From positions 22,551 through 86,550 of the forward strand of contig DATFRP010000196.1 in NCBI GenBank assembly GCA_035263125.1: a stretch of DNA of 64,000 nucleotides. Reading direction: 5' to 3'. Shown one piece after another: positions 25,834 to 55,607 of this stretch (position 1 is its first letter; every line of letters begins with the position of its first letter). Position numbers and translations under genes: made by a program. The DNA is from Vicinamibacterales bacterium. GTDB taxonomy: Bacteria; Acidobacteriota; Vicinamibacteria; Vicinamibacterales; UBA2999. Below the pieces are notes generated by a model, which searched no databases, was not told where the DNA came from, and was given only the letters and a program-made list of their open reading frames with translations.

Positions 25834-26605
25834 ACGTCACCTTATCGTGCGTCGTCACCTCGTCGTACGCAGAGTCCGGCTTTAGCCGGACCAAGGCGTC
25901 GCGCACGCGAATCACCTCTCCGATCACTAGCACACCGGGCACGCCCTCGGGGGGTCCCACCGATCCGAGCTCCGCAAGCCTGCCCGTCCATGTCCATTCA
26001 TCGGCGGTCGATGCCCCGCAGATCACGGCCGCCGGAATATCCCCGGACCAGCTGTGTTCGAGCAGCCGCGACGCGATCTCATGTCGCCCGGCCAGACCCA
26101 TCATCACGACGAGCGTGATGCTGTTCGGTCGTACCGCAGCGATGGTCGCATCGAGTGACTCGCCGGTCTGTCCTGCAATGACGAGAAACCCGGACGCCAC
26201 ACCACGATGCGTGACCGGAATGCCGGCGAGCTCGGGCGCCGCAACCGCAGTCGTGACGCCGGGAACCACTTCCACGGGAATCCCCGCAACCGACAACGCG
26301 AGCGCCTCTTCGGCTCCGCGCCCGAACACGAAGGGATCGCCGCCCTTCAACCGCACGACCCGTTTGCCCTGCCGCGCGGCCCTGACCATCAGCCGGTTGA
26401 TCGTGTCCTGCTTGACGCTCGCACGGCCGGCGCGCTTGCCGACGCAGAAGCACTGCCCGTTGGTAGCCGCCCGTACCGCATCCGCATCGACGAGGGCGTC
26501 GTACAGGACCAGATCTGCGTGTTCGACGCGCTGCCGGGCCCGGACGGTCCACAACTCTGGATCGCCAGGACCTGCACCGACCAACGAGACCAATCCGATC
26601 GTCAT
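25820..26605 (-). CDS. cobA: Uroporphyrinogen-III C-methyltransferase (SUMT)
   Basis: VSLVGAGPGDPELWTVRA...ADLVLYDALV...VVRLKGGDPFVFGRG.EE fits the TP_methylase family. Start taken at MTIGLV (ATG 26605). The C-terminal tail overlaps the sulfite reductase start and contains a palindromic repeat (25874-25891). Confidence 0.85.
   Translation of the reverse strand: MTIGLVSLVGAGPGDPELWTVRARQRVEHADLVLYDALVDADAVRAATNGQCFCVGKRAGRASVKQDTINRLMVRAARQGKRVVRLKGGDPFVFGRGAEEALALSVAGIPVEVVPGVTTAVAAPELAGIPVTHRGVASGFLVIAGQTGESLDATIAAVRPNSITLVVMMGLAGRHEIASRLLEHSWSGDIPAAVICGASTADEWTWTGRLAELGSVGPPEGVPGVLVIGEVIRVRDALVRLKPDSAYDEVTTHDKVTYGRS
25874..25891. repeat. Intragenic GC hairpin gtccggc-ttta-gccggac inside the cobA 3' tail
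   Basis: A perfect 7-bp stem with a 4-nt loop. It is read on the minus strand as V-R-L-K-P-D. The same unit occurs at 40254-40271. Confidence 0.7.
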
Positions 26606-35090: not shown

Positions 35091-35285
35091 CGACTCATGC
35101 CCTCCATTGATGCGCCTCGAGGTCTCTCCCGGAGGCCGCGCGCACAATTTTCCTTTTTTTTGACGGCTTCCGGCCGCGATATTGCGTGGGGAGGAGGCCC
35201 GAAAGCCCGTTGCGGAAAGGGCCGCCAGCGACTTATCATCCGCGGCGTCAGAGCGGGTCCGGCCAATTCTCTCAGGGAGGCAGGA

Positions 35286-38200
35286 ATGATGCGCGCACTA
35301 GCCAAAGGCGTGTTGACGTGTCTGTGTCTGGCCTTGTTGCCCGGCGCAGTCTACGCCCAGGCGACTATTCAGGGAGTCGTGAAGGATACGTCAGGCGCGG
35401 TATTGCCTGGCGTGACCGTTGAAGCATCGAGTCCGGTGCTCATTGAGAAAACGAGGTCGACCGTCACTGACGGTTCAGGCCAGTATCAGATCATCAACCT
35501 CCTGCCAGGGACCTACACCGTCACGTTCACGCTGAGCGGGTTCAACGTGTTCAAGCGTGACGGGATCGAACTGAACGGATCGTTCGTGGCGACGCTCAAC
35601 GCCGACATGAAGGTCGGCGCGATCGCTGAAACGATCACCGTCACCGGCCAGACACCGCTCGTCGATGTGCGCAGCGCTGCGGTGCAGAAGGTCGTCACGA
35701 AAGAGATCGTCGACACGGTGCCGACAGGTCGACTCGGCATCAACCTCGCCGCGCTGCAGCCGGGCATCATCCTCGGCGCTGGTGGCTCGGTCGGAGGCGC
35801 CAACACCAATTCGCTGACGTCTCAGGATGTGGGCGGCACTGCCGGCGACACGTTCACCGATCTCGCAATCCACGGCGGCAAGCCGGCGGAACAGCGGCAG
35901 ACGATCGGCGGCCTCTCTGCCGCGACCACAATTCGTTTCGGTGAATCACTGAGCAGCTCGCCCAGCTTCACCGCGATGCAGGAGATGTCGGTCAACACCT
36001 CCGGCGCTGACGCGTCGCTCGCGGGCGGAGGCGTTCAGATCAACTACGTGCCGCGCGACGGCGGCAACACGTTCAAAGGCCTGATGTTCTACTCGGGCGC
36101 CAGCGGCGCGATGCAGGGCACGAACTACACCACCGGCACGAGAGACGCGAGCGGCAATTGCACGCCGGCGGAGAGCATGTTCTGCCGCGGCCTGGTGACG
36201 CAACCCGGTGCGCTGAAAACGGTCTACGACATCAATCCGGGATTCGGCGGTCCGATCTTGAAGGACAAACTGTGGTGGTTCGCGACTGCACGATGGACCA
36301 AGGCCGAGAACTACGTCCCGAACAACTATCCGAACAGGAACTTCGTGGTCGGACAAACCAACCCGACGCTCCTCAACACCGCCACGATGTCCTACGTTCC
36401 CGAGCAGTCGCAGCCGCTCTACACGACACTCGGCGGCGGCGGCTACTTCTGGGAACAGACGGCGCGGCTCTCGTGGCAGATGGACCAGAAGAACAAGTTC
36501 GGCTTCTACTACAACAACAAGAAACGGGAGTACACGAACGCCCTCAACGGTACCGCTCATGAAGCGTTGAACACGACGTACTTCTTCCCGTTCTCCGACA
36601 ACCTGGTGCAGTGGTCGGCGCCACAGACCAACAGGCTCCTGCTCGAGGCCGGCTTCTGGCGTCACCAGGAAACGTGGGGAGGCCGCAGGGCTGCGACCGA
36701 TATCGCGGACCCACTGGCCGTTGGCGTCACCGACAACAACCCGCAGTCGACCGTACCTGGGTACACCCAGTTGATCAACAACTATCACGGCCGCGTCGGC
36801 GCAACCGATACACCGAGCCACAACCCGAACTACCGTGGCAACTTCGCGGCGTCGTACGTGACCGGCTCGCATTCGTTCAAGACCGGTATCGACTTGAACG
36901 GCGCGTTCCGATGGTCGAACAACTTGTCGGTGGTTCCATACAGCTACGTCGTGAGCACCTTGGCGAGCAATGGGGTCGGCGTCGGCATCCCCGTGCCGCA
37001 AAGCCTCTCGCTGCGCTCGGACGGCTGCACCGATCCGCTCGTGCGTCAGGTCAACGGCGGTCTCGTCGGAGGAGACACGACCATCCACGATTGCCCGACG
37101 CCTGCCCTCGGCTCGCCCAACAAGGTGACGAGCGAAGGCGGCATCTTCGCGCAGGACAAGTGGACGATCAATCGCCTGACGTTGAGCGGCGGCATCCGGA
37201 TGGACTGGTTCTTCTCGGAGAACCCGGCGTTCCATCTCGGGCCGTCGCTGCTGACGCCGCTTCGCAACTACGACGTGCCGAAGTTCAGCACGACGCGCTA
37301 CAAGGACTGGACGCCGAAGGCGGCGATGGCCTACGACCTGTTTGGTGACGGCAAGACCGCGCTCAAGGTCAACGTCGGCAAGTACGTGCTGGGGCAGGCG
37401 CTGGTGCTGGGTGGTCTCGCGAGCCAGGCGGGCTACAACATCCAGCTGACATCGTCGCGAACCTGGATCGACAACAACAACAACTTCATTCCTGACTGCG
37501 ATCTGACTCGTAACACCAACCAGGGGCCGGCACCAGGGCAGGAGCCGCAGATCGATACCTGTCTCGCGGCCGTTGGCCCGAACGCCAACTTCTACAGCAA
37601 CACGCTCTTCCCCAACCTCGCGGTGCAGGACGATGCTCGGTACGGATGGGGCAAGCGTCCGTACAGCTGGGAGTTGTCGACGAGCGCGCAGCACGAAATC
37701 GGCCGCGGCGTGTCGGTGAACGGCGGCGTGTTCTGGCGCTGGTTCGGCAACTTCCTCGTGACCGACAATACGTCGGCGACGGTCGAAAACTTCACTGAGT
37801 TCTCGGTCAACCCGTCGGTGATTCCTACTGCTCCGTCCCAGTCCGGCGGTCAGCAGCTGCCGAGCGACATCAACACGGCTCACTTCTACAACCTCAACCC
37901 GGGCGTCCCCGTCACCAACCTGCAGGGGTTGTCAAAGACGATGTTCCCCGGCAGCAACGTGTATGACCACTGGTTCGGATTCGACCTCGGTCTGAATGCG
38001 CGGCTGCCACAGGGCATCATCTTCCAGGGCGGTCTCAGCACCGGTCATCAGACGACCGACTACTGCGACGTCCAGGATCCGGCAAAGGCTGGCACCAAGG
38101 CGCTCGTCGAAATGCTCGGCGCCTCGTCGCTCAATACCTGTCACATGGATCAGAACTGGTTGCCGCAGGTGAAGTTCCTCGGCTCGTACACCGTGCCGAA

Positions 38201-38621
38201 GATCGACGTGCAGATCGGCGCGTCGTTCCAGAGCATTCCGGGCGTCGAGTACGCCGCGAACTACGCAGCGGCAAACTCAACGACTCCCGATCCGACCAAC
38301 GCGGCCAACATCGGTCTGTCGCGGCCGGTCTCACAAGGAGGTCTCGGTCGACTGCCATCGGGAGGCGCGGCAACCGGCACGACCACGCTCAGCCTGATTC
38401 AGCCAGGCTCGCTCTACGGTTCGCGCTTCAATCAGATCGACGCGCGCTTCGGAAAGGTCGTCCGATTCGCCCAGCGCCGGGCGGTGGTGAGTCTCGATCT
38501 GTTCAACGTGCTCAACGCCGACACGATCGCACTGGCAAGCAGCACCTATGCAACGTGGCTTGCACCTCAGGCCGTCGTTGCGCCTCGTCTGATGAAAGTC
38601 TCGTTGACGTTCGACTTCTAA
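35286..38621 (+). CDS. Large TonB-dependent receptor-like outer-membrane protein with N-terminal CarboxypepD_reg-like domain (receptor 1, 1111 aa)
   Basis: Signal peptide MMRALAKGVLTCLCLALLPGAVYAQA; GVVKDTSGAVLPGVTVEASSPVLIEKTRSTVTDGSGQYQIINLLPGTYTVTFTLSGF; C-terminal barrel signature ...KVSLTFDF. RBS GGGAGG lies before ATG 35286. The ORF-track start at 34737 is an artefactual extension. Confidence 0.8.
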   Translation: MMRALAKGVLTCLCLALLPGAVYAQATIQGVVKDTSGAVLPGVTVEASSPVLIEKTRSTVTDGSGQYQIINLLPGTYTVTFTLSGFNVFKRDGIELNGSFVATLNADMKVGAIAETITVTGQTPLVDVRSAAVQKVVTKEIVDTVPTGRLGINLAALQPGIILGAGGSVGGANTNSLTSQDVGGTAGDTFTDLAIHGGKPAEQRQTIGGLSAATTIRFGESLSSSPSFTAMQEMSVNTSGADASLAGGGVQINYVPRDGGNTFKGLMFYSGASGAMQGTNYTTGTRDASGNCTPAESMFCRGLVTQPGALKTVYDINPGFGGPILKDKLWWFATARWTKAENYVPNNYPNRNFVVGQTNPTLLNTATMSYVPEQSQPLYTTLGGGGYFWEQTARLSWQMDQKNKFGFYYNNKKREYTNALNGTAHEALNTTYFFPFSDNLVQWSAPQTNRLLLEAGFWRHQETWGGRRAATDIADPLAVGVTDNNPQSTVPGYTQLINNYHGRVGATDTPSHNPNYRGNFAASYVTGSHSFKTGIDLNGAFRWSNNLSVVPYSYVVSTLASNGVGVGIPVPQSLSLRSDGCTDPLVRQVNGGLVGGDTTIHDCPTPALGSPNKVTSEGGIFAQDKWTINRLTLSGGIRMDWFFSENPAFHLGPSLLTPLRNYDVPKFSTTRYKDWTPKAAMAYDLFGDGKTALKVNVGKYVLGQALVLGGLASQAGYNIQLTSSRTWIDNNNNFIPDCDLTRNTNQGPAPGQEPQIDTCLAAVGPNANFYSNTLFPNLAVQDDARYGWGKRPYSWELSTSAQHEIGRGVSVNGGVFWRWFGNFLVTDNTSATVENFTEFSVNPSVIPTAPSQSGGQQLPSDINTAHFYNLNPGVPVTNLQGLSKTMFPGSNVYDHWFGFDLGLNARLPQGIIFQGGLSTGHQTTDYCDVQDPAKAGTKALVEMLGASSLNTCHMDQNWLPQVKFLGSYTVPKIDVQIGASFQSIPGVEYAANYAAANSTTPDPTNAANIGLSRPVSQGGLGRLPSGGAATGTTTLSLIQPGSLYGSRFNQIDARFGKVVRFAQRRAVVSLDLFNVLNADTIALASSTYATWLAPQAVVAPRLMKVSLTFDF

Positions 38622-38678
38622 AGGTAGATAGGTCCGCCTTCGCCGTTTGGGCTTCGGCGAGACGCAGGGCAAGTGGGG

Positions 38679-38715
38679 GCGGGTAAGGCCGCAAGGTCTT
38701 ACCCGCTCTTTTTTT
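38679..38715 (+). terminator. Rho-independent terminator after receptor 1
   Basis: A 12-bp stem gcgggtaaggcc / ggtcttacccgc (one G:U) with a GCAA tetraloop, followed by tcttttttt. Confidence 0.8.
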
Positions 38716-38736
38716 GAGTAACATCCGATCGTCCAC

Positions 38737-40509
38737 GTGTCATTTCCCAGGTACTCCGTTCTTGCTGCCGCGCTGTGTGTCGCCTGCGCGGCGTGTGGAT
38801 CCACTCCCCCTCAGAGCCCCGCGCCCACACCGAAGGCGAACTCCGCGCTCGAGATCAAGGGAGACTGGTTCACGGAACGCGCCGAGGAGAGCGGGCTCGC
38901 CTTCACGCATGTCAACGGCATGTCGGGCAAGTTCCATTACGCCGAGATCATCGCGCCCGGCGCTGCGCTGTTCGACTACGACAACGACGGAGACCTGGAC
39001 GTCTACCTCGTGCAGGGCTCGGAATTCGGGAAGCCAGGTCCGGGCGGTCGTTTGTTTCGCAACGATCTCCTCGTCAATCCTGACGGCACGCGCACGCTTC
39101 ATTTCACTGACGTCACCGCCGCGAGCAGAATCGTTGCTCGCGGATATGGGATGGGTGCGGCGACCGGTGACATCAACAACGATGGCTGTCTCGATCTGTA
39201 TCTGACCAACCTCGGGGCCAATCAGCTGTTTCGCAACAACTGCGATGGCACGTTCACCGATGTCTCGAGGCAGAGCCGCACTGATAGTGCATCATGGAGC
39301 GTCTCGGCCTCGTACTTCGATTACGACCGTGACGGATGGCTCGATCTGTTCGTCGGCAATTATCTGAACTGGCGCGTCGAATCGAGCCAGCCGTGCTTCA
39401 GCGCGTCGGGGAGACCCGATTACTGTTCACCTAACGTGTACCAGCCGCAGCCGAGCCGCCTGTATCACAACAATCGCGACGGCACGTTCACCGATGTCAG
39501 CAACGCCTCGGGCATCCTGCACGAGTTCGGACCTGCGCTCGGCGTCTCGGCTGCCGACTTCAACGGCGACGGGTGGATAGACTTCTACGTGGCCAACGAT
39601 GGCCAGCCCAATCAGCTGTGGATCAATCAGCACGACGGCACGTTCAGGAACACCGGGCTGCTGTCGGGCACTGCGCTGAGCGCGCACGGGAAAGCCAAAG
39701 CGGGCATGGGGGTCGCCGCCGGCGACATCGACAACGACGGCGACGAAGATCTGTTCGTGACCAACCTGACTGGCGAGGGGAACGACCTGTACATCAACGA
39801 TGGCTCCGGTCTGTTCGAGGAACAGAGCGGGCGCTCCGGCCTGGGCGCCCCCAGCCGCGGGTACACCGGCTTCGGGACAGCATGGTTCGACATCGACAAC
39901 GACGGCTGGCTCGATACGCTCATCGTCAATGGCGCGGTGCAGACCATCGAGGCGCTCAGGCGAGTGAACGACCCCTTTCCGCTGCATCAGCGCAAGCTGC
40001 TGTTTCACAATCTGCGAAACGGTCGATTCGAAGATGTCAGCGCGCGCGGCGGTGCGGCGTTCGCGTTGTCAGAGGTCGGCCGCGGCGCGGCGTTCGGCGA
40101 TATCGACAACGATGGTGATGTCGACGTGCTCGTGGCCAACAACAACGGCAGGCCGCGGCTGCTCGTCAACAACATCGGCACTCGCAATCACTGGATCGGC
40201 CTCCGGCTGGTCGGGCAAGTCCGCCTGAAGGCGGACACTACATCCGATGTAGTGTCCGGCTCTAGCCGGACCCGCGACATGCTCGGAACGCGCGTTGGGG
40301 TCGTCCTCGACAACGGATCAACGCTGTGGCGACGGGCCCACTCGGACGGGAGCTATGCATCGGCCAGCGATCCTCGCGTGCTCGTCGGGCTCGGGCAGTC
40401 GACGAGTGCTCCTCGCGTGCGGGTCGTGTGGCCTGACGGCAAGACCGAAGAATGGACGACGGTCGCCATCGATCGGTACACCACGCTCGCAGAAGGCACC
40501 GGCAAATGA
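38737..40509 (+). CDS. CRTAC1-family lipoprotein: 7-bladed FG-GAP/VCBS beta-propeller + ASPIC/UnbV C-terminal domain (pair 1)
   Basis: Lipobox-like N-terminus MSFPRYSVLAAALCVACAACGS. Seven Ca-binding-type blades (DYDNDGDLDVYLV, GDINNDGCLDLYL, FDYDRDGWLDLFV, ADFNGDGWIDFYV, GDIDNDGDEDLFV, FDIDNDGWLDTLIV, GDIDNDGDVDVLV). UnbV-like end (NHWIGLRLVG...GSYASASDPRVLVGLG). GTG start. Confidence 0.8.
   Translation: MSFPRYSVLAAALCVACAACGSTPPQSPAPTPKANSALEIKGDWFTERAEESGLAFTHVNGMSGKFHYAEIIAPGAALFDYDNDGDLDVYLVQGSEFGKPGPGGRLFRNDLLVNPDGTRTLHFTDVTAASRIVARGYGMGAATGDINNDGCLDLYLTNLGANQLFRNNCDGTFTDVSRQSRTDSASWSVSASYFDYDRDGWLDLFVGNYLNWRVESSQPCFSASGRPDYCSPNVYQPQPSRLYHNNRDGTFTDVSNASGILHEFGPALGVSAADFNGDGWIDFYVANDGQPNQLWINQHDGTFRNTGLLSGTALSAHGKAKAGMGVAAGDIDNDGDEDLFVTNLTGEGNDLYINDGSGLFEEQSGRSGLGAPSRGYTGFGTAWFDIDNDGWLDTLIVNGAVQTIEALRRVNDPFPLHQRKLLFHNLRNGRFEDVSARGGAAFALSEVGRGAAFGDIDNDGDVDVLVANNNGRPRLLVNNIGTRNHWIGLRLVGQVRLKADTTSDVVSGSSRTRDMLGTRVGVVLDNGSTLWRRAHSDGSYASASDPRVLVGLGQSTSAPRVRVVWPDGKTEEWTTVAIDRYTTLAEGTGK
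40219..40271. repeat. Three abutting perfect hairpins inserted in-frame in the CRTAC1 (pair 1) coding sequence
   Basis: gtccgcc-tgaa-ggcggac (40219-40236), acactacat-ccg-atgtagtgt (40235-40255) and gtccggc-tcta-gccggac (40254-40271). They encode VRLKADTTSDVVSGSSRT, a segment absent from the paralog at 47661-49352. Confidence 0.8.
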
Positions 40510-41855
40510 TGCGCACGGCGCGATGGGTCGCGACCACCCTCGTCCTCTCCCTGCTGACGGTCGCCTGCTCGTCGGGATCGAAGGACGCATCGACGACGCC
40601 TGAACAGACTGCGTCGACCGCCTCGCTGCCCGCTGTCTCACTGCCGGACCTTTCCCGCATGGAGCCGTCGGTTCAGAAGCAGATGACCGAACAGTCGAAG
40701 GTGTTGACCACGCTCGTCGCCGACCGGAAGACACCTCCGGCCGATCTCGCGAAGGCCTACGGAGCCGTCGGCAACCTGCTGATGGCGGCTGACTACAACG
40801 AAGCCGCGGAACCCTACTACCTCCACGCGCAGTCGCTCGCGCCCACCGTTGCGAAGTGGCCGTACTACCTCGGACACGTGTACATGGCGATGGCCCAACC
40901 GACGAAGTCGATCGCATCGTTCGAGCAAGCGCTCGCGTTGCAGCCGAACGACATCGCCACGCTGGTGTGGCTGGGCAGCGTCTATCTCGATCAGGGACAG
41001 CCCGAGCTGGCGGAGCCGCGCTTCGCGCAGGCGCTTGCGGTACAGCCTCAAACAGTAGCGGCGCGATTCGGTCTCGGTCGCGCAGCACTCGCTCGACGCG
41101 ACTACGCGCGGGCGGTCGAACAATTCGAGCAGGTGCTATCGGCCGATCCGCGTGCCTCGATCGCACACTATCCGCTCGCACAGGCCTATCGCGCTCTCGG
41201 GGACACCGCGAGGGCGGAGGCGCATCTGCGTCAGCAAGGCAGTGTGGAAGTGGGGCCGCCGGATCCGCTGATGGTGGAGCTGCGCGGTCTCCTGCACAGC
41301 TCGGTGGCCGAAGAGAATCGCGGCATGCGCGCGCTCGACAGCGGCGACTTCAAGGCCGCGGTCGAACACTTCCGCAAGGGCGTCGAGCTTGCGCCCGACA
41401 ATCCATCGCTTCGACACAAGCTGGGAACGGCGTTGTCGCTGATGGGCGATACCGCGGGCGCAGTCGAACAGTTTCGAGAGACGGTGCACCGATCGCCGGA
41501 CTTCGCGCAGGCGCACTACAGCCTCGGTGTACTGCTGGCCGCACACGGCCAGACGAAGGACGGAATCGAACAGCTGTCAGCCGCGGTACGGTACGACCCG
41601 AACTACGTCGACGCTCGTCTTCGATTGGGCGAAATGCTTGGACGCACCGGACAGTTCGAACAGGCGCTGGCGCAGTACAAGCAGGTGCTCGCGATCGATC
41701 CGCGCGTTGCCGATGCGCGGTTCGGATACGCAGGGGCGCTCGTCGGGCTGCGCCGCTATCAGGAAGCGCGCGCGATGCTCGCCGAGTCGTCGAAGCTCTA
41801 TCCCGATCAGCCCAGGTTTGCTGAAGCGTTGGCACGCATGCAGGGTGCGAAATGA
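40506..41855 (+). CDS. TPR-repeat lipoprotein (pair 1)
   Basis: Lipobox MMRTARWVATTLVLSLLTVAC|SS. There are multiple TPR units (e.g. AHYSLGVLLAAHGQTKDGIEQLSAAVRYDPNY). An ATGA start/stop overlap links it to the upstream CRTAC1 gene. It is paralogous to the TPR genes at 49369 and 46069. Confidence 0.8.
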   Translation: MMRTARWVATTLVLSLLTVACSSGSKDASTTPEQTASTASLPAVSLPDLSRMEPSVQKQMTEQSKVLTTLVADRKTPPADLAKAYGAVGNLLMAADYNEAAEPYYLHAQSLAPTVAKWPYYLGHVYMAMAQPTKSIASFEQALALQPNDIATLVWLGSVYLDQGQPELAEPRFAQALAVQPQTVAARFGLGRAALARRDYARAVEQFEQVLSADPRASIAHYPLAQAYRALGDTARAEAHLRQQGSVEVGPPDPLMVELRGLLHSSVAEENRGMRALDSGDFKAAVEHFRKGVELAPDNPSLRHKLGTALSLMGDTAGAVEQFRETVHRSPDFAQAHYSLGVLLAAHGQTKDGIEQLSAAVRYDPNYVDARLRLGEMLGRTGQFEQALAQYKQVLAIDPRVADARFGYAGALVGLRRYQEARAMLAESSKLYPDQPRFAEALARMQGAK

Positions 41856-41877
41856 GTAGTGTGGGCTCTGCCCCGCT

Positions 41878-42822
41878 CTAGGCCCTCAGCGCTGTCACTC
41901 CCCGGCTGACCGGCACACGTCTCGGCTGTGGATACTCGTGCCACACGCACTCGAGGAATTGACGCACCAGTCGTGACGCCTCGCCCCTGCGACTCGCGAC
42001 ACACACTTCGATCGTGGCGCCCGGATCGGCGACAGGCAGGACTGCCACACCGCTCGCCGGCTGAGGACTGGTGAGCGGAACACCGAGGCAGAGGTAGACG
42101 CCTTTCCCGGACGCAACGAGCATCAACCCGGCGTGATTGTATGGACCGGCACCAGGCGTCGGTGTCATCGTCGGGTTCACTCCTGCGCGTGCATAGAGAT
42201 CGAGGACGCGATCGTACAGCGCCGGCCCGATGTGGCGATCCCAGAGCAGCAGCGGCGTCTCGGCAAGGTCGCGGATCCGCACTTCTTCGAGCGCCGCGAA
42301 CGGACTGTCGTCACCGACGACTGCTTGAATGCGCTCGTGATAGATCGGCGCGACGTCGAGGATGGTCTGATCGAGCGGCGGACGCGCGAACACGACATCC
42401 AGCTGGGAGCTGCGCAGCTGCTCGTGCAGATCGTCGGCGCAATAGACGTCCCGTACTTCGAACGTGACGTCGGGTCGCTGCTTCGTGAACTCGACTCGAA
42501 GACGATTGACCACATCCCAGAGGCCCCACCCGATCCCGATGCGGATGCGATTCTCTTCGCCGCGCGCCATTTGACGCGCGGCCTCGCAGAAGTCGCTTCC
42601 AGCCGCGTCGAGCGCGCGCGCTTTCTCGAGCAGACGCTTGCCGTCCTCGGTGAGCGTGACCCCTTGCCGGTGCCGGAGAAACAGCGTCAATCCGAGCTCT
42701 TCCTCGAGCTGATGGATGTGACGGCTGAGTGGAGGCTGGGAGATGTGGAGACGCTCGGCGGCCTTCGTTACGCTCAGGGCGTCGGCAACAGCGATGAACG
42801 CTTTAATGTGCCGGAAGTCCAT
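41878..42822 (-). CDS. LysR-family transcriptional regulator
   Basis: N-terminal HTH MDFRHIKAFIAVADALSVTKAAERLHISQPPLSRHIHQLEEELGLTLF plus a LysR substrate-binding domain. It is divergent from receptor 2. Confidence 0.9.
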   Translation of the reverse strand: MDFRHIKAFIAVADALSVTKAAERLHISQPPLSRHIHQLEEELGLTLFLRHRQGVTLTEDGKRLLEKARALDAAGSDFCEAARQMARGEENRIRIGIGWGLWDVVNRLRVEFTKQRPDVTFEVRDVYCADDLHEQLRSSQLDVVFARPPLDQTILDVAPIYHERIQAVVGDDSPFAALEEVRIRDLAETPLLLWDRHIGPALYDRVLDLYARAGVNPTMTPTPGAGPYNHAGLMLVASGKGVYLCLGVPLTSPQPASGVAVLPVADPGATIEVCVASRRGEASRLVRQFLECVWHEYPQPRRVPVSRGVTALRA

Positions 42823-42836
42823 GGGGGCCGGATTCT

Positions 42837-42851
42837 ATACCAAATCCGTAT
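42837..42851. promoter_or_regulatory. Candidate LysR-type regulator binding site ATAC-N7-GTAT (T-N11-A class)
   Basis: ATACcaaatccGTAT lies 15 nt upstream of the LysR start in the 124-bp divergent region. A second dyad, ACAT-N6-ATGT, is at 42858-42871. ATAC-N7-GTAT is the known core for CatR/BenM-type LTTRs. Confidence 0.45.
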
Positions 42852-42946
42852 ACCTGCACATTGAAAGATGTATTGGACAGTTGCGGCCGAACGCGCGAGG
42901 GTATGCGCGTCAGAGTCACGGTGGTGCGGCTCAAGGAGAGGTGTGC

Positions 42947-45900
42947 ATGAGTCCCATGAAGCACTTGCTGTTGGCAATCACGATCGTATTGAGCGTGCCA
43001 CTCGCCGCCTCCGCCCAGGCCACACTGTCGGGCACGGTCAAGGACCCGTCCGGCGGAGTGCTCCCGGGAGTGACCGTCGAGGCATCGAGTCCGGTCCTGA
43101 TCGAGAAGGTCAGAACTGGCGTCACGGACGGCACCGGCCGCTACACTATCCCCGACCTTCGGCCCGGAACCTATCGAGTGACCTTTGCTCTCTCGGGGTT
43201 CAAGACGGTCGTTCGTGAGGGCGTCGTGCTCACCGGAACGGCGGTCTTCGACGCGAGCGCAGAGCTCGCCGTCGGGAACCTGCAGGAAACCATCACCGTC
43301 ACCGGCGAAACACCGGTCGTCAATCTGGAATCGACGACGCGTCAGGCCGTCATGGACCAGGCGATCGTCACCGCGATCCCGAGCTCGCGCACGCCCTTTA
43401 CGGTCGGTGTGCTGATCCCCGGTGTGCGGAAGGGCGCGTTCACTGGTCAGGACGTCGGCGGCTCGGTGGTGCAGGAAGTCGCCTCGCTCGAAGCCAACGG
43501 CGGCCGAACGTCTGACCAGCGCATGATGGTCAACGGCGTCGCGTTGAGCTCGATGATCGCCGGCGGCTGGGGCGGCGGCGCGGTGCCGAATGCGACCGGT
43601 ACCGCGGAGTTTGCGATCGACGTCTCGGCGGTCGATGCCCAGGCAGCGACCGGCGGCGTCCGCATCAACTTCATTCCGCGAGATGGCGGCAATCGATACA
43701 GCGGCGCCATCTTCGCCAGCTACGCGAACCAGGATTTCGCGAGCGACAACTTCACGGGAAGCGACGTCCAAAAAGCGGGCCTGGCAGTACCCGGCACGAT
43801 CAAGGCGAATGGCGACCTCAATCCTGGATTCGGCGGTCCCATCCAGAAGGACAAGCTCTGGTTCTTCCTGTCCGGCCGATCGCTCTTCGCTGACAACTAC
43901 GTCGCCAGCACGTTCTTCAACCAGAACGCGAACAACCCGAATCGGTACGACTACGTCCCGTCGACCAATCAGGCGATCCTCCATCAGGAACAGACGATCT
44001 ATCAGGCGCGACTGACCTGGCAGGCGGCGCCGAAGCACAAGATCGGACTGACCTACGACCAGGAGAACTTCTGCGCCTGCACAACGGGGATCGGTCCCGG
44101 GATCGGCGGCGCGATCACCTCGCCGGAGGCCGGCAACGATCGTCGTTTCCCGCTCCAGCGATTCGTGACGATGGACTGGAGCACGCCGGTGAGCAATCGA
44201 CTGCTGGTTGAAGCGAGCGCCATTCACCGCGTTGAACGCTGGGGCGGCATGGAGCCGCAGGTCGGCAAGCTGGGGAACATCGACCACCTCACACCAGGCA
44301 TGATCTCGGTAACCGACAGCCTCAACCCGGTGACCGGTGGAGGGCTGACGTATCGGGCGGCCACCAGTTACAACAACTCGTGGAACTGGAACATCCACTA
44401 CCGGGCGGCCGTGTCGTATATCACCGGGTCCAACCAGTTCAAAGTCGGTTTCAACAACGCCTACGGGCATCACGAGAACACGACCTACAGCTCTCCGGCA
44501 GCGCCGTACAGCTACGGATTCACGTCGATGGTGCCCACCTCGATCACCTACCAACTGGTTCCTCGAACCGTGGAGGTGAACGTCAATCGTGACATGGGAC
44601 TGTTCGCTCAGGACAAATGGACGACCGGTCGGTGGACGCTCGCGGGCGCCATCCGTTGGGATTCGTTTGCAAACAGTTTCCCGCCGCAGGGCATCTCGGG
44701 GACCTTCTTCGGCCGGAACGTCAACATTCAATACGACAAGATCGACAACCTCAGTTGGAACGACATCACGCCGCGACTTGGCGCGACCTATGACGTGTTC
44801 GGCAACGGGAAGACGGCTCTGAAGGTCACGCTGAACAAGTACCTCGAGGGGCTGGGCACCACCGGGTTCGGCCCTGCGCAGGTGACCGACGCGCCGAATC
44901 CGATTCTCAGCCTGTCGACCACGGCGGGGCGACCCTGGGCTGACGCCAACAGCAACTTCGTGCCCAACTGCGATCTGAACAACTTCGCGCTCAACGGCGA
45001 ATGCGGGGCCCTGGACAACCCGAACTTCGGGTCGCTCATCCCCACCAGGAGCTACGACCCGGACCTGATGAAGGGCTGGGGCAAGCGGTCCTTCAACTGG
45101 GAGTTCACGACGAGCGTCCAGCACGAGATCATCCCGCGCATGTCGATCGACGTGCAGTATGCGCGGCGGTGGTACGGGAACATCCGCATCATGGACGATC
45201 TCGCCGCCAAGGCGTCGGATTACACGCCGGTCACGGTCACCGCACCCAGTGACTCGCGCCTGCCGAACGGCGGCGGATATCCCTTGACCGTGATGAATCT
45301 GAGTCCGACGGTCGCGGCACAAAACTACTTCGTGACGCTGTCGAACAACTATGGGAAACAGACGGAACACTTCGACGGCGTGAACGTCACGCTCAATGCC
45401 CGCCTGCAGAACGGACTGCTTCTCCAGGGCGGCATGGGCACGGGCAGGCAGGTCACCAACGACTGCGCTGTGGTCGACCAGCTGCCGGAGATGCTCCACA
45501 CCTTCTTCGGCGATCCGACGCGGCTCTTCTTCTTTGCCGCGCGGCCGAAAGAGTTCTGCGAGCAGAACAACGGCTTCATGACCTCGATTCAGGGGCTCGC
45601 CGCCTACACGCTCCCGAAGATCGACGTGCAGATCAGCGGCTCGTTCCAGAACCTGCCCGGGGCGGTGGTCCAAGCCAATGCGAACTACACGGGTCTTCCT
45701 CCAGGGGCCATTCCGGGTTCGATCTCGGGCGCATATCCGTTCATTCCGTTCAAGGCGGTCCAGATCGTCGACCCGGGCCAGCTCTATATCGAGCGGCTGA
45801 ACCAGATCGACCTGCGCCTGTCGAAAATCTTCCGCATCAACAACACGCGGACGAACATCAACTTCGACTTCTACAACGTGACGAACTCCAACTCGATTAT

Positions 45901-46009: not shown

Positions 46010-46013
46010 GAAT

Positions 46014-46037
46014 CAGGAGGCAGGAGGAATCAGGGAA
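46014..46037. repeat. Degenerate CAGGAxx heptamer repeat (CAGGAGG CAGGAGG aat CAGGGAA)
   Basis: Read directly, immediately after the receptor 2 stop and abutting the terminator hairpin. Confidence 0.55.
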
Positions 46038-46070
46038 GGCCGGTCCATTCGGACCGGCCTTTTCCTTTTC
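46036..46070 (+). terminator. Rho-independent terminator after receptor 2 (hairpin shared with the convergent TPR gene)
   Basis: An 11-bp stem aaggccggtcc / ggaccggcctt with loop attc, followed by ttccttttc on the plus strand. There is no T-run on the minus strand. Confidence 0.75.
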
Positions 46071-47649: not shown

Positions 47650-47660
47650 GATGCGGTCGA

Positions 47661-49352
47661 CTAAGACGCCTTCGCGGCCTTGCCGCGTTCGAGGATCCAA
47701 TACCGATCGACGGCAAGGCCGCGGAATTCCTCGACGTCCCCCGGTCCCCATTGCACGCGAACCGTCTGCATCGATTGATCGTCGCCGAGCCCGAACATCA
47801 CTCGTGGATCGCTGGCGGTGCAGTAACTGCCGTCGACCTGAACACGACGCACGACGTTACGACCTCCGCGACCCGCAAGCTCGACACGCGACTGCAGCGC
47901 GTCGCGGTGATAGCGGGGATCGATCGCACGGACACCGAGCCAGTGGCCGCGCGCCCTGACCTCGTTCATCAGCACTCTCGCCGGACCACTGTTGTTGAAG
48001 ATGACGATGTCGATGGAGCCGTCGTTGTCGAGGTCGCCGGCCGCAATCCCGCGAGCGACCTGCATCGGTGCGAACGCGGGCCCGGCGGCGGCGCTGACAT
48101 CCACGAACGTCCCTCGCCGATCGTTGTGAAACAGCTGGCTCCGCTGCTTGAGTGGATAAGGGTCGCCCTTCTGCACCTGGGCGCTCAGATGCCTGACGGC
48201 ACCATTCGCGACGATCAGATCGAGCCAGCCATCGCTGTCGTAGTCGATGAAGCGCGTGCCGAAGCCGGTGAAGCCGAGTTTGAAGAGTCCGTGTTCGACC
48301 GTGCGATCTTCGAACAACCCCCGGCCGACGTTGACGTAGAGCGTGTTGGCCTCGTTGTCGAGATTGGTGACGAACAGATCCTCGTCCCCATCGCCGTCGA
48401 TGTCTCCAAGGTCGATACCCATGCTCCCCTGTGCCTGGCCTGCACGATTGAGCGCCACACCGGCCAGCAGCCCTTCGTCCTTGAACACGCCCGTGCCCTG
48501 CTGGTTGATCCAGAGGCGGTTGGGATCGCCGTCGTTGGCCACATAGATGTCGATCCATCCATCGCCGTTGATGTCCGACGCGAGCACGCCAAGCCCTCGT
48601 GCCGGTGACCGCGTGAGGCCCGCACGCGCCGAGACATCCGAGAACGTTCCGTTGCGATCGTTGTGCAGCAGTCGATCGGCGACCGGCGGATACACAACGG
48701 GATTGCAGTAGTCCCGCGCCGAGCCCGCCGAAAAACAGGTGCGCTTCATGTCCGCGCGGAAGTCGACGTAGTGCGCGACGTACAGATCGAGCCAGCCGTC
48801 GCGGTCGTAATCGAAGAACGTCGCGCTCGTACTCCAGCGCTGGTCGCCAGTGCCCGATTTCTCGGTGACATCGGTGAAGGTGCCGTTGCAGTTGTTGTGG
48901 AGCAGCTGATTGCCGCGTAGATGCGTCAGGTACAGATCGACGCACCCATCGTTGTCGAAGTCACCGGTGGCAGCACCCATGCCATAACCGCGCGCGACGA
49001 TGCCACTCGCTTCGGTGACGTCGGTGAAATGAAGCGATCGCGTCCCCGGAGTCACACGAAGATCGTTCCGAAACAAACGCCCCCCGCTCCCTGCCCCCTG
49101 CACGAGGTACACATCGAGATCGCCATCGTTGTCGTAATCGAACAGCGCACCGCCGGCACCGATGACTTCGGGAAGCCGCAACTCACCCGCCGCGCCGTTC
49201 ACGTGGGAGAAGTCGAGACCAGACTCTTTCGTCCTGTCAACGAGGATGGGAGCGTGCTCCTGCGCGGATCCGTCGAACACCGCCAGCGCCGCGAGGCATA
49301 CCACGACGCTCGATGTCAGCCCCGCACGAACGGCCACACACCGGCGCGTCAC
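47661..49352 (-). CDS. CRTAC1-family secreted protein: FG-GAP/VCBS beta-propeller + ASPIC/UnbV domain (pair 3)
   Basis: Same blade series as the other copies (DYDNDGDLDVYLV, GDFDNDGCVDLYL, FDYDRDGWLDLYV, SDINGDGWIDIYV, GDIDGDGDEDLFV, IDYDSDGWLDLIV, GDLDNDGSIDIVI). The UnbV end lacks the palindromic insertion (GHWLGVRAIDPRYHRDALQSRV). Confidence 0.8.
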   Translation of the reverse strand: MTRRCVAVRAGLTSSVVVCLAALAVFDGSAQEHAPILVDRTKESGLDFSHVNGAAGELRLPEVIGAGGALFDYDNDGDLDVYLVQGAGSGGRLFRNDLRVTPGTRSLHFTDVTEASGIVARGYGMGAATGDFDNDGCVDLYLTHLRGNQLLHNNCNGTFTDVTEKSGTGDQRWSTSATFFDYDRDGWLDLYVAHYVDFRADMKRTCFSAGSARDYCNPVVYPPVADRLLHNDRNGTFSDVSARAGLTRSPARGLGVLASDINGDGWIDIYVANDGDPNRLWINQQGTGVFKDEGLLAGVALNRAGQAQGSMGIDLGDIDGDGDEDLFVTNLDNEANTLYVNVGRGLFEDRTVEHGLFKLGFTGFGTRFIDYDSDGWLDLIVANGAVRHLSAQVQKGDPYPLKQRSQLFHNDRRGTFVDVSAAAGPAFAPMQVARGIAAGDLDNDGSIDIVIFNNSGPARVLMNEVRARGHWLGVRAIDPRYHRDALQSRVELAGRGGRNVVRRVQVDGSYCTASDPRVMFGLGDDQSMQTVRVQWGPGDVEEFRGLAVDRYWILERGKAAKAS

Positions 49353-49368
49353 GAGTGCATCTTACCGC

Positions 49369-50988
49369 TCACGCGCCAGGGCGAGGATGGTGCACCGGAT
49401 CGTCGTTGGTCCAGGGAACGCGGCAGGGTCGACCGGCTTCGTACTGCTTGAGTACCTCGGTGAGCCGCGAGACGATTGCTCCGCCGCCACTCTGCCGCGC
49501 CATTGCGATGGCGTCCCGCTGCCAGCGGATCGCTGCCTGAAAGCGTCCGAGCTCCGCCTGCGTCATCGCCATCGTCTCGGCCAGGGCGAGTGTCCGCTGG
49601 CTCTCGAGGAGCCGCGTCATGATCATCTCGGCGCGGGCGCCGTCGCGCACGCGATCGTCGGGCGCGGCCGCCAGCAGGCGCGCCAGCGCGTGCGCGAATC
49701 CCGGCTGATCGGGAAACGCTTTCATGCTGTCCTGCAGACGGTCGCGTGCTTCCTGATAGCGCGCGAGCCGGACGAGCCCGATCGCGTATCCGAAGCTCGC
49801 CTGCGAGACGGCGGGATTGATGCGGATGATCTCGGCGTAATGCGGAAGCGACTCCTGGACGCGGCCATTGCGACGAAGCGCGTTGGCGAGCGTGAAACGG
49901 GCTTCGAGATACGCGGGATCGCTCGCCACGGCCGTCGAGAACGCGGCGATCGCCTCGTCATCGCGGCCGCGCGATTCCATGATGACCCCGATCCCGAAAT
50001 GCGCGCGGGCGAGACCCGGAGACAACCGCACCGCCTCGCGATACTGTTCCAGCGCGCGGTCGGCGTTCCCCTGCATGTACAACGCGGTGCCCAGATTCAG
50101 CCGGGTGAACGCATTGCGCGGCGACAACTCGACGGCCTTCGACAGATTGTCGGCGGCATCGGCCCATTGACGTGCATCGAGCGCCCTGGTCCCGCGGGTT
50201 TCGTAGGCCGCGGCGTTCTGCAGCAGTCCCGCGAGATCGGCCATCAACGGATCCGCCTGCGGCGGATCGACGTCACCGCGCAGCTTCAAATGCGCGTCCG
50301 CTGCTCGCGCGTTGCCAATACCGCGGTAGGCGAGCGCGAGCGGATAGTGCACGCGCGTTGCAGCCGGCGCCACGCGCAACGCGTTCTCGAGAAAGGTCAC
50401 GGCTTGTGAGTACTGCTGCCTGGCCAACGCCACGCGGCCCAATCCAAACGACACTGCCCCCGACTCCGGCGCCAACGATTTCGCCGTCGTCAGCAGTCGC
50501 TCGGCCTCGTCGGTGCGGTTCGCCGCCAGATGCAACTCGGACAGCCACACCAGCGTCGGCACATCGGTCGGCTGCAGCATGAGCACGCGCTCGAATGCGG
50601 TGACCGCACGCGCGTCGTCGTGCTCGAGGCGAAAAACGTGTCCCAGGTAGTACGGCCACTTCATCTCGGAAGGAGCGAGCGTCTGCGCGTTGGTGAGACA
50701 GGCTTCAGCGGCATCATAGAATTCGGCCGCCATGAAGAGCTTCCCCATCTCGCCGTACGCATCCGCAAGTTCGCTCGACGCGACGCCGGGCTTGCCGATG
50801 GCGGCGGTCATCGACTCGTAACGCGCGCGCAGTTGCGTCTGGACCGATTCCGCCGCTGTCGACATGTCGGGCAGAGACACCGTCTTCAGCGACGGCGTCG
50901 CTGGTGCGGCCGGCGCTGATTCGCGGGCCGTATTGCACGCGGTCACGCCAAGAATGCTGGCGGTCGCGAGGGTAACGAGGTATCTCAC
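49369..50988 (-). CDS. TPR-repeat lipoprotein (pair 2)
   Basis: GTG start overlapping the upstream CRTAC1 stop (GTGA). Lipobox MRYLVTLATASILGVTAC|N. Conserved blocks ELADAYGEMGKLFMAAEFYDAAE and KWPYYLGHVF are shared with pair 1. Confidence 0.8.
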   Translation of the reverse strand: MRYLVTLATASILGVTACNTARESAPAAPATPSLKTVSLPDMSTAAESVQTQLRARYESMTAAIGKPGVASSELADAYGEMGKLFMAAEFYDAAEACLTNAQTLAPSEMKWPYYLGHVFRLEHDDARAVTAFERVLMLQPTDVPTLVWLSELHLAANRTDEAERLLTTAKSLAPESGAVSFGLGRVALARQQYSQAVTFLENALRVAPAATRVHYPLALAYRGIGNARAADAHLKLRGDVDPPQADPLMADLAGLLQNAAAYETRGTRALDARQWADAADNLSKAVELSPRNAFTRLNLGTALYMQGNADRALEQYREAVRLSPGLARAHFGIGVIMESRGRDDEAIAAFSTAVASDPAYLEARFTLANALRRNGRVQESLPHYAEIIRINPAVSQASFGYAIGLVRLARYQEARDRLQDSMKAFPDQPGFAHALARLLAAAPDDRVRDGARAEMIMTRLLESQRTLALAETMAMTQAELGRFQAAIRWQRDAIAMARQSGGGAIVSRLTEVLKQYEAGRPCRVPWTNDDPVHHPRPGA

Positions 50989-52769
50989 TTCCCTTCACCC
51001 TGTTTCAGAGTGATGTAGCGATCGACAGGCAGATCCTCCCACATCTCCATTCGCCCGTCGGGCCATCGCAGGCGCACCGCCACGGGGTCGGCCGACTCGC
51101 CCAGCCCGACGAGCACGCGCGGATCGTTGGCGGATGCGTAGCTGCCATCAGCGCGCGAGCGACGCCACAGCGAGCCTCCGCTCTTTCGAACGATCTCCAC
51201 ACGCGCGCCGAGCATGTCTCGCCCGACCTGGGCCGCCTTAAGGCGGCCCCCACGATCGTCGTAGGGGCCGCCCTTAGGCGGCCCAACGAGTCGAAGCCCC
51301 AACCAATGACGCCCTCTCGTGGCCTGATTGATCAGCAGCCGGGCAGGTCCGTTGTTGTTGGCGATCACCACGTCCACGTCGCCATCGTTGTCGATGTCGC
51401 CGAATGCCGCGCCGCGACCGATCTCCGACAACGCAAACGCCGCTCCTGCTTTCCCCGTCACATCCTCGAAACGCGTGCTTCCTCCATTGCGCAGCAACAG
51501 CTTCTTCTGGTGCAGGGGAAACGGATCGCGCGCCTGCCGCAGCGACTCGATGATCTGCACCGTGCCGTTGACGGCCAGCAGATCGAGACGGCCATCGGAA
51601 TCGAAGTCGAACAAGCCGGCACCGAATCCGGTCAGCGCCAGGCTCGCGGGCCCGACCATCGAGGGCGCGCTCGCATCGACGAACAGGCCGTGTCCGTCGT
51701 TCACATAGAGGTTGCTGCCCTCGCCCGTCAGCTCGGTCATCACCAGATCTTCATCGCCGTCATTATCGATGTCGCCCGCGTCGACACCCATGCTGCCTTC
51801 CGCCTTGCCGCTGACCGGAAGCGCGACCCCTGAAGCCAGCGCCACATTCTCGAACGTGCGGTCGTGGCGATTCAGCCAGAGCTGATTCTCCTTGCCATCG
51901 TTCGCGACGTAGATATCCATCCAGCCGTCGCCGTTGAAGTCCGCGGTCGAGACTCCGAGCGCCGGACCAAACTCGGTGGCCACATGAGACGAAGCGGTGA
52001 TGTCGGCAAACGTGCCGTTTCGTCGATTGAGATAGAGCCGATCGGGCAGCGGCGGAAAGCTGCTCGGCGTGCAGTAATCGGGCGCGCCGGTCGGGCTGAA
52101 GCAGGAGCCGTTGCCCGCGAGCGTGTAGCGCAGGTAGTTGCCGACGTAGAGATCCAGCCATCCGTCGCGATCGATGTCCACGAAGGCCGCGGACACGCTC
52201 CACGACTCCAACGCCGTCCCGGTTTCCTTCGCGACGTCCGTGAACGTGCCGTCGCCGTTGTTGCGAAGCATCTGGTTCGGCGCGTTGAACTTCGTCAGGT
52301 AGAGGTCCACCCATCCGTCGTTGTTGAAGTCACCGGCGGCGACACCCATGCCGTAGCCGCGCGCCTCGATCTTGCTCTCGCGGGTCACGTCAGTGAAGTG
52401 AATGGTGCGCGTGCCATCAGGGTTGATCCGCAGATCGTTCCGGAACAACCGATCGTTCTGTCCGGGTCCTCGGCTCCCGAACTGACCGCTTTGTACGAGG
52501 TAGACGTCCAGATCGCCATCGTTGTCGTAATCGAACAATGCGACACCCGGCCCCAGAATCTCCGGCATGTACAAATGGCCCGACATGCCGTTGATGTGCG
52601 TGAAATCGAGACCTGTCTGCGCGGCGCGGTCGACGAACCAGTCGGCTTCACCATCCGAACGCCTGTCGGTCGTCTCCGGACGGGTCGTCGCGGGCTGACT
52701 CCCCGAGCAGCCGGCGAGCAGGAGGAGAAGAACGAGCGGGGTCGGATCGCGTCTGTTGTGCGGCCGCAT
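50985..52769 (-). CDS. CRTAC1-family lipoprotein: FG-GAP/VCBS beta-propeller + ASPIC/UnbV domain (pair 2)
   Basis: Lipobox MRPHNRRDPTPLVLLLLLAGC|SGS (ATG 52769; the ORF-track start at 53066 overlaps the upstream gene). Same seven-blade series. The UnbV end carries an insertion (PPKGGPYDDRGGRLKAAQVG). Confidence 0.8.
   Translation of the reverse strand: MRPHNRRDPTPLVLLLLLAGCSGSQPATTRPETTDRRSDGEADWFVDRAAQTGLDFTHINGMSGHLYMPEILGPGVALFDYDNDGDLDVYLVQSGQFGSRGPGQNDRLFRNDLRINPDGTRTIHFTDVTRESKIEARGYGMGVAAGDFNNDGWVDLYLTKFNAPNQMLRNNGDGTFTDVAKETGTALESWSVSAAFVDIDRDGWLDLYVGNYLRYTLAGNGSCFSPTGAPDYCTPSSFPPLPDRLYLNRRNGTFADITASSHVATEFGPALGVSTADFNGDGWMDIYVANDGKENQLWLNRHDRTFENVALASGVALPVSGKAEGSMGVDAGDIDNDGDEDLVMTELTGEGSNLYVNDGHGLFVDASAPSMVGPASLALTGFGAGLFDFDSDGRLDLLAVNGTVQIIESLRQARDPFPLHQKKLLLRNGGSTRFEDVTGKAGAAFALSEIGRGAAFGDIDNDGDVDVVIANNNGPARLLINQATRGRHWLGLRLVGPPKGGPYDDRGGRLKAAQVGRDMLGARVEIVRKSGGSLWRRSRADGSYASANDPRVLVGLGESADPVAVRLRWPDGRMEMWEDLPVDRYITLKQGEGK
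51230..51284. repeat. Two copies of the gggccgcc-(c)tta(a)-ggcggccc hairpin inserted in-frame in the CRTAC1 (pair 2) coding sequence
   Basis: gggccgcc-ttaa-ggcggccc at 51230-51249 and gggccgcc-ctta-ggcggccc at 51265-51284, separated by a segment containing the palindrome acgatcgt. The same hairpin occurs intergenically at 55588-55607. Confidence 0.8.
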
Positions 52770-52816
52770 CAATCGAGATCGTACCCGCAGGCACGCATCA
52801 AGATCCGGCCCATCGA

Positions 52817-53227
52817 TCAGTGCAGCGTTTCGCGCGAGGGAGCGTCTTTGAGCACGCCGGTCACCGCGCGGTGCGCGAAGACAGCGTCGGGGACTTCCTG
52901 CAGGGCGGTGTAGTACCGCTGTTCGTACGGCGTGCCCTGTTCGTCGGGGGCGACCAGCCGTCGCGCCTGAGCCACGATCGCAGCGACATCCACGACCGTA
53001 TCCGGCTCCTCCGTATCGAGCGTCTGATCGATCCGCACGATGAGTTCGGAGATCGGACGCAGCCATGCAAACTGCGGATCCGAAACGATGACTCGCAAGA
53101 GCTCGCCTTTGGTCACACGGCCGTGCTTGCGTTCGTAGCCCTCACGCTCCCAGTCGAGGAGCGTCTTGTGCAGCGGCAGGAGCGCGCGCCGCAGCTCGCC
53201 GAGCAGTCGGCGATCGGAGTCTTTCAT
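52817..53227 (-). CDS. Hypothetical cytoplasmic protein (136 aa), first gene of the minus-strand CRTAC1/TPR string
   Basis: ORF with start at MKDSDRR (ATG 53227). It has no signal peptide and is predicted helical (LLGELRRALLPLHKTLLDWEREGYERKHG...). I recognise no family. Confidence 0.55.
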   Translation of the reverse strand: MKDSDRRLLGELRRALLPLHKTLLDWEREGYERKHGRVTKGELLRVIVSDPQFAWLRPISELIVRIDQTLDTEEPDTVVDVAAIVAQARRLVAPDEQGTPYEQRYYTALQEVPDAVFAHRAVTGVLKDAPSRETLH

Positions 53228-55553: not shown

Positions 55554-55587
55554 TCACGCTCTCTTCGTGGGAGCCGCCTCTTTGTGG

Positions 55588-55607
55588 GGGCCGCCTTTAG
55601 GCGGCCC
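55588..55607. repeat. Intergenic copy of the gggccgcc-ttta-ggcggccc hairpin
   Basis: A perfect 8-bp stem, 35 nt after the stop at 55553. Same unit as the two intragenic copies at 51230-51284. Confidence 0.75.

Follow-up and report, generated by a model that had tools for sequence, protein, structure and literature searches.

How a palindromic sequence came to lie within the reading frame of a protein-coding gene is the question raised by a locus of a Vicinamibacterales bacterium (Acidobacteriota; assembly GCA_035263125.1). The window, as the whole stretch of DNA analysed is called here, comprises 64,000 nt of contig DATFRP010000196.1 (positions 22,551 to 86,550), and the element under study occupies window positions 40219-40271 (GTCCGCCTGAAGGCGGACACTACATCCGATGTAGTGTCCGGCTCTAGCCGGAC) in a gene of the CRTAC1 family. 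A preliminary description made from the sequence had read these 53 nt as three abutting hairpin units similar to the palindromic elements of Rickettsia. The element is very probably a doublet of a GTAG-type repetitive extragenic palindromic (REP) family, dispersed in Vicinamibacterales, which landed in the CRTAC1 gene.

The three perfect palindromes are present as first described, being GTCCGCC-TGAA-GGCGGAC (40219-40236), a central ACACTACAT-CCG-ATGTAGTGT (40235-40255) and GTCCGGC-TCTA-GCCGGAC (40254-40271), with 2 nt shared by each pair of neighbours. The same 53 nt also form a single palindrome of 26+1+26 nt, 85% complementary, which is the longest close inverted repeat of the window. The reading as three independent hairpin units was rejected, since the central palindrome alone is not a repeated unit: it is formed by two facing GTAG heads and the 7-nt spacer between them. 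The element is thus two REP units placed head to head, one on the minus and one on the plus strand, both fitting GTAG-T-GTCCGSC-N4-GSCGGAC with zero mismatches. Each unit has the size, the 5' head and the palindromic structure of a GTAG-type REP, with 23 nt that begin with GTAG-T and contain a perfect 7-bp stem and a 4-nt loop. The left unit is the same as the third commonest variant of the family (among the matches listed, see below), and the loop of the right unit, TCTA, deviates from the family loop TTYA. Folded as RNA with a few flanking bases the element gives one long hairpin with a minimum energy of -41.5 kcal/mol (z = -6.15), and the DNA fold gives -23.4 kcal/mol (z = -5.8). A single long hairpin as the minimum-energy fold is the structure of the inverted REP doublets called REPINs (REP doublets forming hairpins).

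The dispersal of the unit was determined by a scan for the pattern GTAGTGTCCGSCNNNNGSCGGAC across 185,579 species genomes, and the family figures given here are those among the matches listed. At least 117 stretches carry the unit, almost all of them in metagenome-assembled genomes (MAGs) of Vicinamibacterales or other Acidobacteriota, and several MAGs hold many loci. The consensus of 170 copies is cGTAC-GTAG-T-GTCCGGC-TTYA-GCCGGAC-C, with an orientation-specific loop and a T after GTAG (position +4) in 92% of at least 170 copies. Two stem subfamilies were identified, GGC (about 70%) and GCC (about 30%), with complementary stem variants in 176 of 177 copies; this is direct covariation support for the stem. 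Neighbouring units are arranged tail to tail (5-9 nt apart), head to head (7-44 nt) or in tandem. In four soil metagenomes a rise in contig depth of 5-10 fold or more is seen over 40210-40277, and on some of the contigs the units stand in other arrangements, as is expected of a dispersed repeat. At locus L076 (1195-6690), 11 units are found in 8 kb, lying between response-regulator and histidine-kinase genes that converge; some of the units are carried on a tandem duplication of 198 nt.

The family is mostly extragenic, with a tolerated in-frame minority. About 9 of the 177 units (5%) lie deep within open reading frames (ORFs) with a coding signature and about 95% are extragenic, a split made by a rough classifier using ORFs and the GC content of third codon positions (GC3), not gene calls; its strict GC3 thresholds missed the window's own copy, so that 5% is a rough lower estimate. 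These numbers answer two checks proposed in the preliminary description, namely whether the unit recurs and how intragenic and extragenic copies compare. Real host genes with in-frame units code for an S9 peptidase, a UvrD/AddA helicase, GlmM and a DUF255 protein, the first three at loci L024, L049 (helicase) and L062. Three tandem in-frame units were identified in the peptidase (VVSGASRT, VVSDSSRT and VVSGFSRT) and a head-to-head doublet is located in the linker between domains I and II of GlmM. Four of the six frames of the family unit are open (VVSGFSRT, SVRLQPD, VRLKPDTT and GPAEAGHY).

The host gene codes for a protein with a putative signal peptide or lipoprotein signal at its N-terminus, judging from the sequence. 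Pfam domains PF13517, PF01839 and PF07593 were identified on all close homologs and on the third CRTAC1 paralog of the window, as corresponds to CRTAC1 proteins with an ASPIC/UnbV domain. The element is read in frame, and the resulting loop QVRLKADTTSDVVSGSSRT stands between HWIGLRLVG, the last strand of the propeller, and RDMLGTRV, where the first UnbV/ASPIC strand begins (RDMLG...), in agreement with the first reading of the locus. The AlphaFold2 (AF2) model of the host protein (predicted local distance difference test, pLDDT, 83.9; predicted template modelling score, pTM, 0.86) superposes on murine CRTAC1, 9etn (E 2e-30, TM 0.69-0.74). In this model the insert, residues 495-513, is coil with pLDDT of about 50 between strands 485-494 and 512-514, so that the 15 extra residues are predicted to form a disordered surface loop, as had been expected. 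It is almost certain that the host protein functions despite the insert rather than owing to it.

An insertion of about 15 residues that keeps the frame had been proposed from the comparison with one paralog (47661-49352), where PRYH is indeed found at the site, and it is borne out by the orthologs. In most of the 120 best homologs the loop has 3-4 residues, typically [KR]Q[AT][AP], and the net gain in the window gene is 15 codons (45 nt). Close CRTAC1 homologs number about 8000 at E < 1e-30. The comparison with orthologs, which had been suggested as a way to find out whether a non-palindromic loop of the same length is universal, shows instead this short loop in most of them. The closest of the 120, P0001 (88% identity by BLASTP, 94% over aligned columns), is encoded on the syntenic contig L001 and has the 4-residue loop PPEG. 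Its DNA at L001 11528-11539 (GGGCCGCCTGAAGGGCGAGAC; CCGCCTGAAGGG) has 11 bases (CCGCCTGAAGG) in common with the left unit of the window, and the site looks like the footprint of a unit imprecisely lost. Judging from the sequences, the empty loop is the ancestral state and the site appears to have been entered several times, because the short loops have 4 residues in nearly all relatives and paralogs. No joint skipping 40216-40272, as an empty allele in the source population would give, was found in four metagenomes. The orthologs recovered in the metagenome scan were mostly distant paralogs (44-77% identity), which inform on the generality of the site and not on dating.

The same loop is occupied repeatedly. 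At least 6 extra residues are found at the loop site in 57 of 121 orthologs, and all 27 REP-signature peptides of the GTCCGSC family identified in the 121 orthologs are located there. The other sites that tolerate indels, near residues 99, 185 and 429, have none of them and hold repeat-derived peptides of other kinds. At the DNA level at least five arrangements and at least three hairpin types were distinguished at the loop site (Table 1), two of the types being shown as dispersed REP families. One of these is present in the window itself, as a second doublet overlooked in the preliminary description, which lies in frame in the homologous loop of the third CRTAC1 paralog; the GGCCGCC type to which it belongs is a dispersed family of its own with an extragenic copy at 55584-55606. 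For the GCGGCCC type one further copy was seen (L019), which weakly supports its being a dispersed family. The doublet of ortholog P0045 (L200) has the same outer boundaries as that of the window gene and differs in its GGC-type left unit, in a 16-nt spacer and in having a further palindromic element of 38 nt inside the right unit's loop. It is possible, if doubtful, that the loop is a site-specific hot spot, in which units of two dispersed REP families and of a third GTAG-headed type would have been acquired independently, as doublets or singly, and then kept perfect at the nucleotide level, with the GTAG head, over about 50% synonymous divergence.

Two candidates for a target sequence were rejected. 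The flanks have a weak likeness to REP arms (cTCCGGCTG upstream and CGCGAC downstream), too weak to be called a target motif, and the 4-bp inverted repeat GTCG/CGAC is a consequence of the codons for Val-Gly and Arg-Asp. Another structured-insert family codes for peptides such as SPKLGTSEGG and GEGSPKPRAKAAT and is found at CRTAC1 sites near residues 99, 185 and 495; a copy at L001 10535-10603 (69 nt) has no counterpart in the window gene, and one at L200 3262-3300 is nested within the loop of a REP unit. At L205 1567-1623 there is a direct duplication, 21 nt long, that takes in the right REP arm as well as the Arg-Asp codons of the host (SRTRDDASRTRD); it suggests replication slippage at the boundary of the element.

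The intragenic units are preserved at the nucleotide level. Six orthologs carry the forward unit; compared pairwise, they differ at 34-58% of the synonymous positions of conserved residues, with nearly every pair at about 50%. Gene-wide, 177 of 201 (88%) invariant V/A/G/P/T/L/R/S columns show codon variation in these six, whereas none of the 7 codons over the GTAG head and both stem arms varies; the chance of 0/7 at the gene-wide rate is about 0.12^7 = 4e-7. Only the 4-nt loop varies (TTCA, TTTA, TTAA and TCTA), and these variants argue for resident copies rather than fresh insertions, because they are rare. The doublet of the third paralog is retained in L133 (74% amino-acid identity, 49% synonymous difference), where the sole stem change is compensatory, from a G-C to an A-T pair. 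The GTAG head is invariant even in single units, in which it has no pairing partner, and this points to REP-specific recognition or conversion, not to a generic hairpin function, behind its conservation. Selection, gene conversion from other copies and repeated re-insertion would all fit the pattern.

The course of events proposed is that a REP doublet, REPIN-like, would have inserted in a tolerant CRTAC1 loop and survived as frame and fold were kept. The insert would be tolerated because the net gain of 45 nt is a multiple of three, because four of the six unit frames lack a stop codon and because the extra residues are predicted to be a disordered surface loop. By likeness to the REP systems of proteobacteria, from which mobilisation is inferred, the unit would be moved by a REP-associated tyrosine transposase (RAYT) of the HUH/Y1 type acting on single-stranded hairpin DNA. 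The preservation described above would reflect that the unit is still recognised, or converted, as a live REP.

Table 1. Coordinates of the REP units, their host genes and the arrangements identified at the CRTAC1 loop site (positions refer to the window unless a locus is named).
Feature	Position	Strand	Remarks
REP doublet, two GTAG-type units head to head	40219..40271	.	one long imperfect hairpin or three small ones
Left REP unit, GCC subfamily	40219..40241	-	minus strand reads GTAGTGTCCGCCTTCAGGCGGAC; translated VRLKADTT
Spacer ATCCGAT	40242..40248	.	7 nt between GTAG heads
Right REP unit, GGC subfamily	40249..40271	+	GTAGTGTCCGGC-TCTA-GCCGGAC; translated VVSGSSRT
Host gene, CRTAC1-family protein	38737..40509	+	FG-GAP beta-propeller and UnbV/ASPIC
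19-codon loop QVRLKADTTSDVVSGSSRT	40216..40272	+	protein residues 495-513; 3-4 residues in relatives
CRTAC1 paralog, empty site	47661..49352	-	4-residue loop PRYH
Third CRTAC1 paralog	50985..53066	-	carries second doublet
Second REP doublet, head to head	51231..51283	.	GT[AG]G-G-GGCCGCC-N4-GGCGGCC; 7-nt spacer; PPKGGPYDDRGGRLKAAQVG
Solo GTCCGSC-family unit, mutated head	25869..25891	+	CGTAC-GCAGA-GTCCGGC-TTTA-GCCGGAC-C; perfect hairpin 25874-25891
Extragenic GGCCGCC-family unit, GTGG head	55584..55606	+	31 nt past stop of ORF 54102-55553
Loop site: head-to-head GTCCGSC doublets	window gene 1 (host gene); L200		
Loop site: single forward units	L203-L206		
Loop site: tail-to-tail doublets	L201; L131		
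Loop site: head-to-head doublet of GTAG-headed GCGGCCC hairpins	L202		
Loop site: head-to-head GGCCGCC doublets	51231-51283; L133		

Other explanations of the element were weighed against its identification as a REP doublet. Coincidental palindromy in an ordinary variable loop would agree with the varying loop length among homologs, and its probability is practically nil. GTCCGSC-N4-GSCGGAC is matched three times in the window against 0.29 expected and none of 100 shuffles reached three; the central palindrome has a chance expectation of 0, and the units are identical to a repeat found in more than 100 other places. Chance origin is excluded, because the shuffles never equal the observed pattern counts and the RNA and DNA folds have z-scores near -6, and coincidence is already refuted. 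Equally negligible is an assembly artefact, either a repeat-induced chimera or a palindrome made by the assembler, which the metagenomic source may suggest, as repeats may mislead assemblers. It is excluded because 40121-40700 is reproduced with 0 differences by an independent Logan contig (5917 nt, depth 23) from the soil-metagenome run X1; besides, reading frame and homology run on at either side and similar inserts occur in many independent assemblies. The comparison with Rickettsia palindromic elements (RPEs) in the preliminary description holds as a functional analogy, since in-frame palindromic insertion is the hallmark of RPEs and the repeats RPE-1 to RPE-8 lie, as here, in surface loops of functional proteins. 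Membership of the RPE family, or of the classical MITEs (transposable elements of the miniature inverted-repeat kind) with terminal inverted repeats and target-site duplication, is on the other hand very improbable. The short intragenic RPE-4 and RPE-6 are filed under the CGTC class, whereas the head here is GTAG, and RPE-1 is a longer palindromic insertion (PMC3733652). The sequence families are unrelated, being set apart by head class and by host rather than by alignment of consensus sequences; Rickettsia is an obligate intracellular alphaproteobacterium and the host here belongs to Acidobacteriota. MITEs usually carry target-site duplications as well, and none was found at the boundaries of the element (GGGCAA before it and CCGCGAC after it). 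With MITEs such as Nezha, Correia/NEMIS, RUP and ERIC the element shares being a short, non-autonomous, structured repeat in or beside genes; these are however 70-300 bp long with terminal inverted repeats of the insertion sequence (IS) type (PMC3733652), whereas 53 nt in two REP units, with no IS-like ends, are all that is found here. An intrinsic terminator was also rejected, as no T-run follows the hairpin (CCGCGACATGCTC) and the element lies inside the ORF, 238 nt ahead of the stop codon.

A role in the nucleic acid, for which the doublet would be kept, would add to the REP origin and not replace it, and selection would then explain both the recurrent acquisition and the perfect stems. Candidate roles are an intra-operon hairpin for mRNA stability or processing, situated some 240 nt ahead of the stop codon and of the overlapping TPR gene downstream, and a protein-binding DNA site. 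In its favour are the invariant head and stem codons of the forward unit in a gene where 88% of comparable codons vary, the compensated stem of L133, the several hairpin types and arrangements in one loop and the restriction of all the signature peptides to this loop among the indel-tolerant sites. Against it, an empty loop of 4 residues serves many orthologs and one paralog well, the head is conserved in single units though unpaired, which favours REP-specific recognition or gene conversion, a search of 39500-41000 in Rfam at E <= 1 gave no match, a look for RNA-seq runs containing the stretch returned none, and the identical pattern would result from recent re-insertion or from conversion by other copies. 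Such a role is considered unlikely. The landing of a dispersed REP doublet remains the preferred explanation, and several observations weigh against it. Among the family matches listed, close pairs are more often tail to tail than head to head, and head-to-head pairing over a 7-nt spacer is not the most frequent form. Only three GTCCGSC-family units, all within ORFs, are present in the 64 kb, and the window's own genome looks poor in these repeats. A passive passenger should decay, yet the stems and the head are invariant at about 50% synonymous divergence. Finally, motif regular expressions, and phmmer with E. coli RayT (NC_000913) and three Y1 consensuses as probes, applied to ORFs of at least 70 aa, turned up neither a RAYT nor another Y1 transposase in the window and in 1.4 Mb of loci from relatives, which are fragments of many genomes. 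RAYT genes are usually single-copy. No transposase was identified near the REP-dense L076 either, where Pfam gave two-component-system and dioxygenase genes only.

The copy of the third hairpin already reported in the tail of cobA is present (GTCCGGC-TTTA-GCCGGAC); the complete solo unit is translated as VRLKPD in a 48-residue C-terminal tail past the TP_methylase domain, 41 nt upstream of the start of the next ORF (25833), and this tail may be an extension created by a REP. A partial GGCCGCC-family copy (GTGGGAGCCGCC) lies ahead of the extragenic unit of that family. The real start of the third paralog is probably about 100 codons inside its ORF. In the region 34737-53066 a group formed by a large CarboxypepD_reg-like protein, a CRTAC1 protein and a TPR protein is present three times, on both strands; the three groups are syntenic with L001, with a LysR-type regulator between groups.

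The closest known systems are the GTAG-tagged REPs of proteobacteria and their doublets, described as bacterial interspersed mosaic elements (BIMEs) or REPINs (Di Nocera 2013, PMC3733652; Bertels & Rainey 2011, PMC3116915). Shared with them are the 23-nt unit, in which a GC-rich stem-loop comes after a 5' GTAG, the large number of dispersed copies, most of them extragenic and frequently a short way downstream of genes, the compensated-stem subfamilies and the inverted pairs able to fold as one long hairpin. Differences are the new phylum and the new consensus (GTCCGSC stem, TTYA loop), the head-to-head arrangement of this copy with just 7 nt between heads, and the lack of a cognate RAYT in the sequences searched. 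Intragenic GTAG and CGTC REPs are known from Opitutus terrae, Thauera, Thioalkalivibrio and others, and in-frame REP dimers in known genes encode 20-30 residues (2013, PMC3733652). Single units and dimers in frame are found here as well, and a UvrD/AddA-type helicase is likewise decorated. The preliminary description was not aware of an equivalent for this kind of genome; in-frame REP dimers are known from the groups just named, and no literature on intragenic REPs in Vicinamibacterales was found. The element is thus of a known kind, an in-frame GTAG REP dimer, from a new family in a new phylum. Unlike the cases in PMC3733652, one homologous site is recurrently occupied by several REP families in paralogs and orthologs, and the intragenic copies are preserved at the nucleotide level; both features exceed the published descriptions found.

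REPs and REPINs are among the commonest bacterial repeats; their insertion and upkeep are unsettled, and most work has been carried out on proteobacteria. The present data add a well-defined GTAG REP family for Vicinamibacterales, which are abundant and rarely cultured soil Acidobacteriota and which tolerate REP-coded peptides in real enzymes. For annotation, the peptides VVSGFSRT, VRLKPDTT, SVRLQPD and GP[PA]E[GA]GHY flag REP inserts in proteins of Acidobacteriota. The CRTAC1 loop constitutes a natural experiment, in which different REP families have time and again colonised one codon boundary of a gene family present in several copies, and with filled sites, empty sites and one apparent footprint the choice of target, excision and the maintenance of REP structure become testable by comparative genomics. 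If the loop were a true hot spot, either REP integration would have a target specificity readable from this site, or the intragenic REPs would be under selection or continuous conversion as live nucleic-acid elements.

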